NCBI RefSeq assembly: GCF_029227855.1
Contig: NZ_CP074356.1
Direction: 5' to 3' (one strand)
Source: Escherichia coli
GTDB taxonomy: Bacteria; Pseudomonadota; Gammaproteobacteria; Enterobacterales; Enterobacteriaceae
Length of the DNA: 64,000 bases
The translations under genes were made by a program, and so were the position numbers. The notes below the pieces were generated by a model. The model did no database searches, was not told where the DNA came from, and saw only the letters and a list, made by a program, of their open reading frames with translations. Shown one piece after another: positions 2,697-33,201 of this stretch; the stretch's first letter is position 1, and every line of letters starts with the position of its first letter.

Positions 2697-2812
<116 letters not shown>

Positions 2813-4774: not shown

Positions 4775-6827
<2,053 letters not shown>

Positions 6828-14223: not shown

Positions 14224-14239
14224 AATTTTACTCAGACAT

Positions 14240-14345
14240 AAAAAAAACCCGGCATAGGGGACCGGGAAGAGGATAGTCTGCCGTCTCCAGACTAATAAAC
14301 CGTTATAACACTCCCTGTTGGCACGGGAAACTTTGTGCTCTCAGT
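14240..14345 (-). ncRNA. gadY: GadY small RNA, antisense to the gadX 3' end / gadX-gadW intergenic
   Basis: Minus strand reads ACTGAGAGCACAAAGTTTCCCGTGCCAACAGGGAG...CCCGGTCCCCTATGCCGGGTTTTTTTT, matching recalled GadY including the terminal hairpin and U-run. Confidence 0.75.
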
Positions 14346-14590
14346 AAGTTAAATATAACTTTTACTGGAAATAAGATCAGCCATTTTTTTATAAACATAA
14401 GCTATACGCTGTGCGAAAATATATTCGTGCTGCATTTACTTATTATCAATTAACTGTTATGCAAAACTACTTTGTGGATAAATTTTGGTCCTACCAAATC
14501 TGGCAGTTTTTTCGCTAAGAAACAGTCTGGCAACATTTCATTAGTATACTGAAATTGAAATAATCGCAGTATGAAATATAAGGGATAATC

Positions 14591-30618: not shown

Positions 30619-30972
30619 TTAACTGCAAATGTTCTTACTGTCCCCGGAACAGTTTTGTCGAGCCAGGTTGCGGACAATCGCCTGAACCTTTTCCTGTTCA
30701 CATCGCCAGGCCTCATCAATAATTTTCGCCGCCCATGCTGGAATATGCGGTGATAAGCGGTAATGAACCCACTTACCTTGCTTGCGGTCCAGCAATAGCC
30801 CGCTTTCACGCAGCAATGCCAGGTGGCGGGAGATCTTGGGCTGCGACTGGTCGAGAGCAGTGCAGAGATCGCAGACGCATAACTCTCCCAGTTCGCTGAG
30901 CAGTAAAACGATGCCCAGACGGGTTTCATCAGCAAGAATTTTGAACAATTGGATGGGTAACAGAAATGACAT
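30619..30972 (-). CDS. arsR: Arsenic-responsive repressor ArsR
   Basis: ORF 117 aa with ELCVCDLC metalloid-binding motif. Confidence 0.9.
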   Translation of the reverse strand: MSFLLPIQLFKILADETRLGIVLLLSELGELCVCDLCTALDQSQPKISRHLALLRESGLLLDRKQGKWVHYRLSPHIPAWAAKIIDEAWRCEQEKVQAIVRNLARQNCSGDSKNICS

Positions 30973-31124
30973 ATTGCGCTCCTGATTGTTGCAGGTAGTG
31001 TCTCTCTTCGAAGCGGATAAGTCAAAAACATATATGACTTAACGAATGTGTAAGTGCAGAGGAAGGTAATAGGTGTGAATTTTGAGTTGGCTATTCATTT
31101 GAAAGGAGGTCTGAATCAGGACGT

Positions 31125-31212
31125 AAAAAAACCGACTTTGCGTCGGTTTTTTACTTTCCAGCCCTGAGTTGGTGGCTCTGGCTGGAGTGAGAGAGTTCTT
31201 ATCTAACAGCTC
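31125..31212 (-). ncRNA. agrB: AgrB small RNA (antisense regulator of dinQ); boundaries approximate
   Basis: Repeat copy sharing sequence with the dinQ 5' UTR, ending at hairpin ACCGACGCAAAGTCGGT plus U-run on the minus strand; position between arsR and dinQ. Confidence 0.45.
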
Positions 31213-31354
31213 AATACTATTAGCCAGTGGCTAACATTGTAAGAATTAGCGATTTCTTCAGCTGGCGGAGGGGGCACTTCGGTATATATCGCAATGACGA
31301 TTTATATACTTTCACTGGGTCATCGTCATATTACGCCTTGTCCGAATCCGGATG

Positions 31355-31441
31355 TAAAAAAACCGACTTTGCGTCGGTTTTTTACTTTCCAGCCCTGAGT
31401 TGGTGGCACTGGCTGGAGTGAGAATGCCATTATCTAACGCA
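31355..31441 (-). ncRNA. agrA: AgrA small RNA; boundaries approximate
   Basis: Second copy of the same repeat and terminator hairpin, about 230 bp from the first. Confidence 0.45.
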
Positions 31442-31502
31442 TCAATGCTAATACCATACTGAAACTATTGCAAGGACATGCTGGTTTTATAACCTGAATG
31501 TA

Positions 31503-31518
31503 CTGTATGATTATCCAG
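31503..31518 (+). promoter_or_regulatory. LexA box (SOS operator) of dinQ
   Basis: CTGTATGATTATCCAG fits CTGT-N8-ACAG-type spacing, upstream of dinQ. Confidence 0.6.
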
Positions 31519-31711
31519 TTAGCTCTGAGGCATTTTCACTCTGGTAATGCGCATAAACGCTTTCAAAGTCCTGGTCAGAAGTACGGGTGGTGCCGTTAAC
31601 TGATGCTCTGGCCGGAGTGAGAATGCCATTATCTAACAATAGGGCATGCGCCGTGACAGGCAGTGGATGAGTAAGCGGATGCATTCTCACTCCATCGCAT
31701 GGAGAAAACGG

Positions 31712-31795
31712 GTGATTGATAAAGCAATCATCGTTCTTGGGGCGTTAATTGCGCTGCTGGAACTGATCCGCTTTCTGCTTCAGCTTCTGAACTGA
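31712..31795 (+). CDS. dinQ: SOS-induced toxic membrane peptide DinQ (27 aa, GTG start)
   Basis: gtg att gat aaa gca atc atc gtt ctt ggg ... aac tga translates as (M)IDKAIIVLGALIALLELIRFLLQLLN; too short for the ORF track. Confidence 0.6.
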   Translation: MIDKAIIVLGALIALLELIRFLLQLLN

Positions 31796-31848
31796 TAGCG
31801 GAAACGTAATTAAGGGCTAAGAGCACACTACTCTTAGCCCTTTAACAT

Positions 31849-33201
31849 TTAACGCATTGTCACGAACTCTTCTGCCGCCGTTGGGTGAATGGCGACGGTA
31901 TTGTCGAAGTCTTTTTTGGTTGCACCCATCTTCAGCGCCACCGCGAAGCCCTGCAACATTTCGTCCATACCAAAGCCAATGCCGTGAATACCGACAATCT
32001 TCTCTTCCGATCCAACGCACACCAGCTTCATGCGGCACGGCTGGCGGTGAGTGGTGACGGCGGTATACATCGCGGTGAAAGAGGATTTATACACTTTCAC
32101 CTGATCGTCGCCATACTGCTCGCGCGCCTGCGGTTCCGTTAAACCAACAGTACCAATCGGCGGATGGCTGAAGACCACGGTCGGAATGTTGCTGTAATCC
32201 AGATGCTCATCCGGCTTGTTATTAAACAGGCGTTCAGAGAGACGGCGACCCGCTGCAACTGCCACCGGTGTCAGCTCCACTGCACCCGTGTTATCGCCCA
32301 CCGCGTAAATACCTTCAATATTGGTGTTTTGATATTTATCGACGACGATATAGCCTTTTTCGTTAGTTTTAACGCCAGCGGCTTCCAGGTTGATGTTGTC
32401 ATTGGCAGGCTCGCGACCAATCGCCCAAATCAGGCAATCCACCGTTTCACTGCGACCATCTTCCAGCTCCAGCGTCAGGCTACCATCGGCATTTTTCACT
32501 ACCGCTTTCGGGATGGCGTTGGTGTGCAGCTGCGGGCCTTCGGCGTTCATCACTTCGACCAGCGTTTCGGAAATCATCGGGTCGAAGCTGCGCAGCGGCG
32601 CATGTTTACGCACAAACAGATGCGTTTTCGCGCCGAGGCCGTTAATCACGCCCGCCAGCTCAACGGCGATGTAACCCGCGCCAACAACCGCCACGCGCTC
32701 TGGCAAAGCAGGAAGGGCGAAGAAGCCATCAGAATCAATACCGTATTCCACGCCCGGAATATCCGGGTGGCTCGGACGACCGCCTGTGGCGATCAGAATA
32801 TGATCGGCCGTGATGGTTTCGCCGTTTACCTCCAGCGTTTTGGCATCAACGAAGCGGGCAAAGCCTTTGATTACATCAACGTTATTTTTACCGAGCACGT
32901 TTTCATAGGAAGTATGAATACGGTCGATATAGGCGGTACGGCTGGCGATCAACGTTTCCCAGTTGAATTTATTGATAGTGGTATCAAAACCATAATCCGG
33001 GCCGTACATATGGATCGCTTCACGGATTTGCGCCGCGTGCCACATCACTTTTTTCGGCACACAGCCAACATTTACGCAGGTGCCGCCCAGCTCTTTGGCT
33101 TCAATCAGCGCACATTTCTGGCCGTACATAGCCGCGCGGTTGATGGAGGCGATACCGCCGCTGCCGCCGCCGATGGCGATGTAATCATAGTGTTTAGTCA
33201 T
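31849..33201 (-). CDS. gor: Glutathione reductase
   Basis: ORF 450 aa, [19 protein letters not shown]...[10 protein letters not shown] redox-active disulfide motif. Confidence 0.9.

Follow-up and report, generated by a model that had tools for sequence, protein, structure and literature searches.

A predicted change of antisense partner at the dinQ-agrAB toxin–antitoxin locus of an Escherichia coli strain

In E. coli K-12, the dinQ gene is repressed by LexA; no protein is made from its +1 mRNA, and translation of the +44 form gives a 27-aa inner-membrane toxin (PMC3567139, PMC5066626). Four sequences in the dinQ leader, numbered 1 to 4, can form the mutually exclusive helices 1:2, 2:3 and 3:4, and the AgrB RNA pairs with nucleotides G88–A119, closes the Shine-Dalgarno stem and blocks translation (PMC3567139, PMC5066626). 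AgrB, with 30/31 complementarity to dinQ, is the proven antitoxin, and its gene is essential for UV resistance, whereas AgrA, with 25/31, had no effect in vivo or in vitro (PMC3567139, PMC5066626). AgrA failed to bind dinQ mRNA, to change its SHAPE pattern or to block its translation (PMC5066626); in Northern analysis, both the mismatched AgrA and AgrB lowered the amount of full-length dinQ mRNA (PMC3567139). Strand-specific transcripts, processing at +44, cleavage of the duplex by RNase III and membrane toxicity have been established for K-12 only (PMC3567139, PMC5066626), and the functional knowledge of dinQ/agrAB as a whole comes from strains of the K-12 lineage, whose haplotype occurs in just 27% of complete E. 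coli genomes. Which of the two Agr RNAs, then, is the likely partner of dinQ in a strain with a different haplotype? We addressed this question in a 64,000-nucleotide stretch of E. coli contig NZ_CP074356.1 (hereafter, the window).

Positions 30,973–31,848 of the window are the known dinQ-agrAB type I toxin–antitoxin locus of E. coli, in the interval between arsR and gor:

30619–30972, minus strand: arsR, the left flanking gene (an open reading frame; ArsR in the 100%-identical record L002 and in K-12)
31849–33201, minus strand: gor (gorA), the right flanking gene (in the ORF list; annotated in K-12 and L002)

A sequence-only reading of this DNA had taken the region for a dinQ-agrA-agrB type I toxin–antitoxin-like module, and had proposed alignment to the K-12 gor-arsR interval as a check. 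In that alignment, the intervals of the window and K-12 are both 876 bp long, without gaps, with the same order of elements and about 97% identity. The K-12 annotation of the interval holds dinQ, agrA adjoining dinQ, and agrB adjoining arsR, so that the order AgrB then AgrA, as originally read, agrees with position: the first repeat copy, on the arsR side, is agrB, and the second, on the dinQ side, is agrA. The identification is supported by this synteny and identity, by two matches to the Rfam AgrB model, by a match to the NCBIfam DinQ model and by a LexA box equal to that of K-12. Clearly, all elements of the locus described in that reading are real, and the system is one already known. The same position, the 876-bp length, the DinQ peptide, the LexA box, the terminators, leader elements 1–4 and two Agr genes with equal promoter architecture and fold are shared with the K-12 system as described (Weel-Sneve et al. 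2013, PMC3567139; Kristiansen et al. 2016, PMC5066626). With a 951-bp query, 5,422 of the 5,426 complete E. coli genomes gave a match, six of them at 100% identity. In the PGAP-annotated records that we fetched, dinQ is named, but the agr RNAs are annotated in none, and only the K-12 reference carries them; the locus call, although it concerns a textbook system, fills this gap.

The dinQ part of the locus comprises the following features:

31501–31520, plus strand: predicted LexA operator TACTGTATGATTATCCAGTT, identical to that of K-12 and overlapping the dinQ −10 element TATGAT (31506–31511)
31518–31848, plus strand: dinQ primary transcript of 331 nt, with +1 at 31518 and the +44 processing site at 31561
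31533–31545, plus strand: leader sequence 1 (nt 16–28), base-paired to sequence 2 while the mRNA is in its inert +1 form
31605–31636, plus strand: antisense target (nt 88–119) in the third, partial repeat; includes sequence 2 at 31611–31623
31623–31630, plus strand: hypervariable leader recognition block (nt 106–113, AUGCCAUU), the K-12-versus-window difference predicted to set partner specificity
31684–31704, plus strand: sequence 3 (anti-Shine-Dalgarno, 31684–31695) and sequence 4 with the Shine-Dalgarno sequence (31699–31704)
31712–31795, plus strand: dinQ open reading frame with a GTG start, encoding a 27-aa single-pass membrane toxin (NF041472; PGAP annotation in L002)
31812–31842, strand unassigned: dinQ terminator hairpin shared with the convergent gor (−19 kcal/mol, z = −6.9)

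The transcript coordinates were transferred from the numbering in PMC5066626 and checked against leader sequences 1–4. A LexA-type operator had been read at 31503–31518 (CTGTATGATTATCCAG); it is present there, and the full 20-mer is the K-12 operator, which has a heterology index of 4.83 (PMC3567139). The half-site pattern TACTGTATN7CAG has a single exact match in the 64 kb, the dinQ operator, and one site with a single mismatch, with 0.54 sites expected at up to one mismatch; this second site (23088–23105, minus strand, TACTGTTTCTTCATGCAG) is within chance expectation. A search for the perfect LexA palindrome with three mismatches allowed gave no match, and the half-site pattern was the more useful. 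The proposed 27-codon GTG frame at 31712–31795 likewise encodes DinQ: its peptide, MIDKAIIVLGALIALLELIRFLLQLLN, is that of K-12, and it matches the NCBIfam equivalog NF041472 (toxin_DinQ) with 54 bits (cutoff 30). In the mechanical ORF list, this frame is concealed inside a 49-aa ATG frame at 31646–31795, which would explain why dinQ was missing from the ORF track.

Leader elements 1–4 of the window can form the mutually exclusive helices 1:2, 2:3 and 3:4, each of them intact or longer as compared to K-12. Helix 1:2 has 17 bp (−31.4 kcal/mol versus −23.3 in K-12), helix 2:3 is an inverted repeat of 13 perfect bp (−25.7 versus −20.7), and helix 3:4 has a predicted energy of −8.1 kcal/mol. The leader switch was assessed from these pairwise helices only; when the +1 and +44 leaders were folded by minimum free energy and by partition function, the published SHAPE-derived states with an open or closed Shine-Dalgarno sequence were not clearly recovered for either allele.

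Upstream of dinQ, a 114-nt segment occurs twice (31109–31222 and 31340–31453), the two copies being 88% identical and 231 bp apart. A third, partial copy of 33 nt (31605–31637) is 94% identical to the middle copy and identical at 27/33 positions (82%) to the first. The repeat had been described as an approximately 85-bp unit at about 31125, about 31355 and partially at about 31590; the three copies are there, but the third lies slightly further right. It does lie within the dinQ leader, as had been proposed, the antisense target at 31605–31636 being leader nt 88–119. On the minus strand, both long copies match the whole Rfam model RF02891 (AgrB), well above its gathering score of 40, as fits the initial assignment of the first two copies to AgrB and AgrA:

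31123–31206, minus strand: distal agr sRNA gene, at the agrB position (Rfam, 108.4 bits; K-12 annotation and alignment; fold)
31126–31152, strand unassigned: terminator hairpin of the distal copy, a symmetric sequence with an A-run on one side and a T-run on the other
31214–31242, minus strand: putative distal-copy promoter, with TAGTAT (31214–31219) as −10 and TTACAA (31237–31242) as −35 element
31354–31437, minus strand: proximal agr sRNA gene, at the agrA position, the predicted cognate antitoxin (Rfam, 104.0 bits; duplex; fold)
31424–31431, minus strand: recognition block of the proximal sRNA (nt 7–14, AAUGGCAU), its strain-variable part
31445–31473, minus strand: putative proximal-copy promoter, with TAGCAT (31445–31450) as −10 and TTGCAA (31468–31473) as −35 element

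Each copy folds as a 20-nt single-stranded 5′ tail followed by a stem-loop and a terminator hairpin. The hairpins had been called bidirectional, which is true at the level of sequence, as AAAAAAACCGACTTTGCGTCGGTTTTTT folds on both strands (z = −4.7 on the plus strand). A simple terminator scan returned the dinQ/gor hairpin only. Both agr terminators, which the Rfam structure and direct folding show, were missed, probably through loss of the T tail into their A/T-extended stems. As a simple promoter scan gave only one site, no more than chance, the agr promoters were positioned by homology and spacing, from the annotated 5′ end in K-12 and the arrangement TTGCAA-N17-TAG(C/T)AT-N7 common to all copies. 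The putative −35 element of the proximal copy is invariant across the haplotypes examined, and its −10 element is TAGCAT except in O157:H7 (L007), which has TAGTAT. At window position 31240, a G-to-A change converts the putative −35 element of the distal copy from TTGCAA to TTACAA; it is found in 6 of 5,426 genomes and is private to the clade of this strain, on which ground we rejected it as a sign of haplotype-wide decay.

The differences between K-12 and the window concentrate in the region of antisense interaction, and in the sRNA the variable block falls in the predicted single-stranded 5′ tail. Written in the sense of the sRNA, the dinQ target of K-12 reads TTAGATAAGAACTCT..., which is the sequence of AgrB, AgrA being GATGGCTAT. 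The target of the window reads TTAGATAATGGCATT..., which is the sequence of the proximal copy, whereas the distal copy keeps the AAGAACTCT of K-12, and its first 32 nt are those of K-12 AgrB. The dinQ recognition block of 8–9 nt is AAUGCCAUU in the window versus GAGUUCUU in K-12, and the predicted best partner is the proximal copy, not the distal one:

Window dinQ with the proximal copy: 30/32 Watson-Crick pairs, 23 of them contiguous from the sRNA 5′ end, −53.6 kcal/mol
Window dinQ with the distal copy: 26/32 pairs, six mismatches in the seed, −41.3 kcal/mol
K-12 dinQ with AgrB (active): 31/32 pairs, −58.2 kcal/mol
K-12 dinQ with AgrA (inactive): 25/32 pairs plus 4 G·U, −42.7 kcal/mol

Counted in the way of the K-12 papers, complementarity in the window is 29/31 for the proximal and 25/31 for the distal copy, versus 30/31 for the active and 25/31 for the inactive RNA of K-12. 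Near-perfect antisense complementarity of about 31 nt between an Agr 5′ end and dinQ nt 88–119 is found with the proximal copy, which has an A·C mismatch at sRNA nt 24 and a U·U mismatch at nt 30 and forms a duplex about 5 kcal/mol weaker than that of AgrB with dinQ in K-12. By these predicted duplexes, the distal copy is as poor a partner of dinQ as the inactive AgrA is in K-12. As the dinQ leader of the window carries an allele complementary to the copy at the agrA position, the K-12 assignment, with AgrB as the antitoxin and AgrA inert, is probably not valid for this strain. The arsR-gor position, the 27-aa GTG peptide, the LexA operator and the Agr sRNA architecture are all found here, but the K-12 wiring, with a near-perfect distal AgrB and a mismatched proximal AgrA, is not; it is a feature of the K-12 allele rather than of the dinQ-agrAB locus as such. 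In the searchable literature we found no description of such a partner swap, and T1TAdb says only that the more stable of the two antisense RNAs is picked. The A·C mismatch in the middle of the duplex (31614 against sRNA nt 24, at 31183 and 31414; CCAGCC against GGCCGG) is kept in 9 of 11 haplotype pairs and is removed only in distal copies of the ETEC6333 and strain 144 types.

We consider it likely that the dinQ message of this strain finds its antisense complement in the proximal, agrA-position RNA, with the distal copy mismatched. If the steps established in K-12 hold here, LexA would repress dinQ, and DNA damage would lead to the 331-nt primary mRNA, which is untranslatable. Removal of the first 43 nt would let sequence 2 pair with sequence 3, freeing the Shine-Dalgarno sequence and allowing the 27-aa DinQ to be made and to enter the inner membrane. 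The single-stranded 5′ tail of a constitutive Agr RNA would pair with leader nt 88–119 and capture sequence 2, whereupon sequence 3 would re-close the Shine-Dalgarno sequence, translation would stop and the duplex would be cleaved. What we infer to differ in this strain is the repressing RNA, which would be the proximal copy at 31354–31437 instead of the distal copy at 31123–31206. The swap is likely to have originated in short-tract gene conversion among the three direct repeats; as the sRNAs are transcribed from the strand opposite to that of their target, conversion would automatically give complementary transcripts.

Haplotype classes were defined from a spread sample of a 601-bp region, which fell into discrete classes, and 21 E. 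coli representatives were fetched. The 21 dinQ loci with intact promoters comprise six target and thirteen sRNA 5′ alleles. Of these loci, 12 have their best partner in the proximal copy and 7 in the distal copy, with a tie in 2, and every locus (21/21) has at least one sRNA with no more than two true mismatches. When the sRNA sets were permuted among the 17 distinct haplotypes from these 21 loci, the mean best mismatch was 2.48 ± 0.32, versus 1.06 observed, and 0 of 20,000 shuffles were as good, with the reservation that the haplotypes cannot be treated as independent in phylogenetic terms. Seven pairs of the best-partner duplex (sRNA nt 7–11, 13 and 14) vary on both sides, and 96.9% of the cells are paired, versus 89.5% after shuffling (0/500 reach the observed value) and about 35% after sliding, the best partner being chosen per genome, which biases this count. 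The variation is focused: in the block at mRNA nt 106–113, 8/9 positions vary, and the pairwise diversity of 0.40 compares with 0.035 elsewhere in the leader and 0.015 in the dinQ frame (Fisher p = 2e-7). Gene conversion with hitch-hiking or linkage could alone, without selection, give matching alleles, the homologous repeats being about 200 bp apart.

Alleles were counted in the whole collection of 5,426 genomes with synthetic queries of 49-nt allele-specific segments that cannot seed on the wrong allele:

Full window haplotype: 1,206/5,426 genomes
Window proximal allele together with the window dinQ allele: 1,664/5,426 (30.7%)
Full K-12 haplotype: 1,479/5,426 (27.3%)
Window proximal allele with K-12 dinQ and a K-12-type (matching) AgrB: 12/5,426
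Two agr copies: 3,840/5,426
One agr copy, one 231-bp unit being lost: about 750/5,426 (about 14%)
Promoterless fusion remnant: about 830/5,426 (about 15%)

Strains with the window haplotype include CFSAN029787 and isolates of O26, O103 and O104:H4. It would be too strong to say that the window proximal allele is always accompanied by the window dinQ allele, given the 12 recombinant genomes. About 450 of the 1,664 genomes with the matched pair appear to lack the distal copy, and both examples fetched (L008 and L027) indeed do: the distal copy is gone, while the window dinQ allele, its LexA-controlled promoter and the proximal copy are kept. Such strains are natural deletion mutants for the copy that K-12 requires for UV resistance. 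In single-copy loci, exactly one 231-bp repeat unit has been lost via recombination between copies, and in the four inspected (L008, L009, L024 and L027), the remaining copy matches the dinQ allele of its own strain (4/4).

These data bear on whether the K-12 paradigm could nonetheless apply unchanged, with the distal AgrB copy as the working antitoxin and the proximal copy as an inert paralog. The distal copy does begin with the 32 nt of K-12 AgrB, and the 26/32 pairs that it retains with dinQ include runs of 9 and 8 bp. However, its six mismatches cluster in the single-stranded seed, its duplex energy equals that of the inactive AgrA with dinQ in K-12, the distal copy appears to be missing from those approximately 450 genomes with the same dinQ allele (checked in L008 and L027), and in the small clade of this strain its putative −35 element has the G-to-A change, all of which makes that reading highly unlikely. 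More room is left, though still not much, for a joint contribution of both copies, in which the proximal one would block translation of the +44 mRNA and the distal one would give partial or back-up repression, for example by lowering the level of full-length mRNA. The distal copy may indeed not be fully inert, since even the mismatched K-12 AgrA lowers full-length dinQ mRNA, as AgrB does (PMC3567139); moreover, promoters and folds of both copies are kept in the 3,840 two-copy genomes, and in some haplotypes (L017 and L021) both copies match about equally. On the other hand, the gap of 12 kcal/mol between the two duplexes in the window is that between the active and inactive RNAs of K-12, and the distal copy is dispensable in the natural single-copy strains, so that we regard such sharing as rather unlikely.

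It could also be argued that the locus is decaying in this lineage, that the match reflects only recent gene conversion or linkage, and that neither RNA matters. The locus can be lost, as the promoterless fusion remnants in about 15% of E. coli genomes, with at least two independent origins (L010/L011 and L028), demonstrate. In this strain, however, the LexA box, the −10 element, leader elements 1–4, the Shine-Dalgarno sequence, the GTG frame and the terminator are intact, the DinQ protein is that of K-12 and the diversity of its frame is very low, and elsewhere the sRNA promoters are lost only together with the dinQ promoter, in the same deletion. We find decay hardly credible. The preferred reading, in which the proximal copy has become the cognate antisense RNA, leads to the in silico prediction that this strain, like about 30% of sequenced E. 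coli, has transferred the specificity of dinQ to the other Agr paralog, as part of a pattern of co-varying recognition blocks seen throughout the locus.

A broader proposal, which we hold with moderate confidence, is that the Agr paralogs are alternative antitoxins switched between lineages by conversion of the hypervariable 8–9-nt block, that AgrA would be the cognate RNA in E. albertii and in roughly one E. coli strain out of two, this one among them, and that the dependence of K-12 on AgrB would be derived. A scan of species-representative genomes gave six dinQ loci only, two of them evidently E. coli DNA in mis-binned MAGs, and two chance matches; it supplied E. albertii, E. whittamii and two more E. 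coli genomes to the comparison. The dinQ target of E. albertii (GACGACTAT) pairs best with the proximal copy, and in E. whittamii both copies pair equally well with dinQ. This suggests that proximal pairing is ancestral, tentatively, as the scan gave so few loci.

The locus resembles tisB-istR-1 (cited in PMC5066626), which likewise encodes a LexA-controlled, SOS-induced membrane toxin; its primary mRNA is inert until processed at the 5′ end, and an antisense RNA, divergent and encoded in trans, binds the 5′ UTR ahead of the ribosome-binding site. In tisB-istR-1, however, the peptide and RNAs are unrelated to those of dinQ-agrAB, the antitoxin RNA is single and the triplicated repeat is lacking. 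In zorO-orzO/zorP-orzP (discussed in PMC11264685 and PMC5397157) and Ibs/Sib, a few variable antisense nucleotides decide which toxin mRNA a given sRNA represses, as appears to be the case here. In those systems, though, a genome has a separate sRNA for every toxin paralog, whereas the single dinQ toxin appears to switch between two sRNA paralogs across strains. If the swap is true, the designations of AgrB as antitoxin and AgrA as inert should not be transferred by position between strains, AgrA, so far without an assigned role, would gain a function, and the locus would offer a compact natural case of antisense/target co-evolution via gene conversion. Placing AATGCCATT in K-12 dinQ would then be expected to make AgrB ineffective, and a window-type proximal allele to restore repression.

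Several minor observations were made at this and neighbouring positions. The fused remnants (L010 at 1201–1520, L011 and L028) arose when an agr repeat recombined with the repeat in the dinQ leader, an event that deleted both sRNA promoters, the dinQ promoter and the LexA box; their promoterless dinQ frame is still called dinQ by PGAP. The fusion arose at least twice, as one type has the allele GTGGGCTAT and also lacks arsRB, and in PEC389 a K-12-type distal copy is fused. Two MAGs, labelled "Lachnospiraceae bacterium" and "uncultured bacterium" (L014 and L016), contain exact E. coli dinQ-agr loci, one of the window type and one of the K-12 type, which suggests that the bins are contaminated with E. 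coli. On plasmids, 46 places match short stretches of the agr body (e.g., NZ_JCAUKO010000003.1, 5644–5678), and these may be the plasmid-borne dinQ-like (dql) loci of PMC5066626. Just 3′ of the antisense target and beyond the repeat, 3–4 bases at 31637–31645 depend on the haplotype (AACAATAGGGC versus AACAATGAGAC or AACAATGGGGC). In the dinQ/gor terminator (31812–31842), compensatory T-to-A and A-to-T changes (alignment columns 876 and 894) convert AAGGGCTAAGAG...CTCTTAGCCCTT to AAGGGCAAAGAG...CTCTTTGCCCTT in O157:H7 and FDAARGOS_448. A 59-aa frame on the minus strand (31511–31690) lies antisense to the dinQ leader, across the hypervariable block, matches nothing in Pfam or NCBIfam and probably represents a false gene prediction; a shorter version of 57 aa is listed as a hypothetical protein in some PGAP records (e.g., WP_001296816.1 in L002). 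Elsewhere in the window, Rfam matches above the gathering score were obtained for GadY (14235–14348, minus strand, 150 bits), ES205 (20127–20198, minus strand, 105 bits) and naRNA4 (2709–2779, plus strand, 84 bits).
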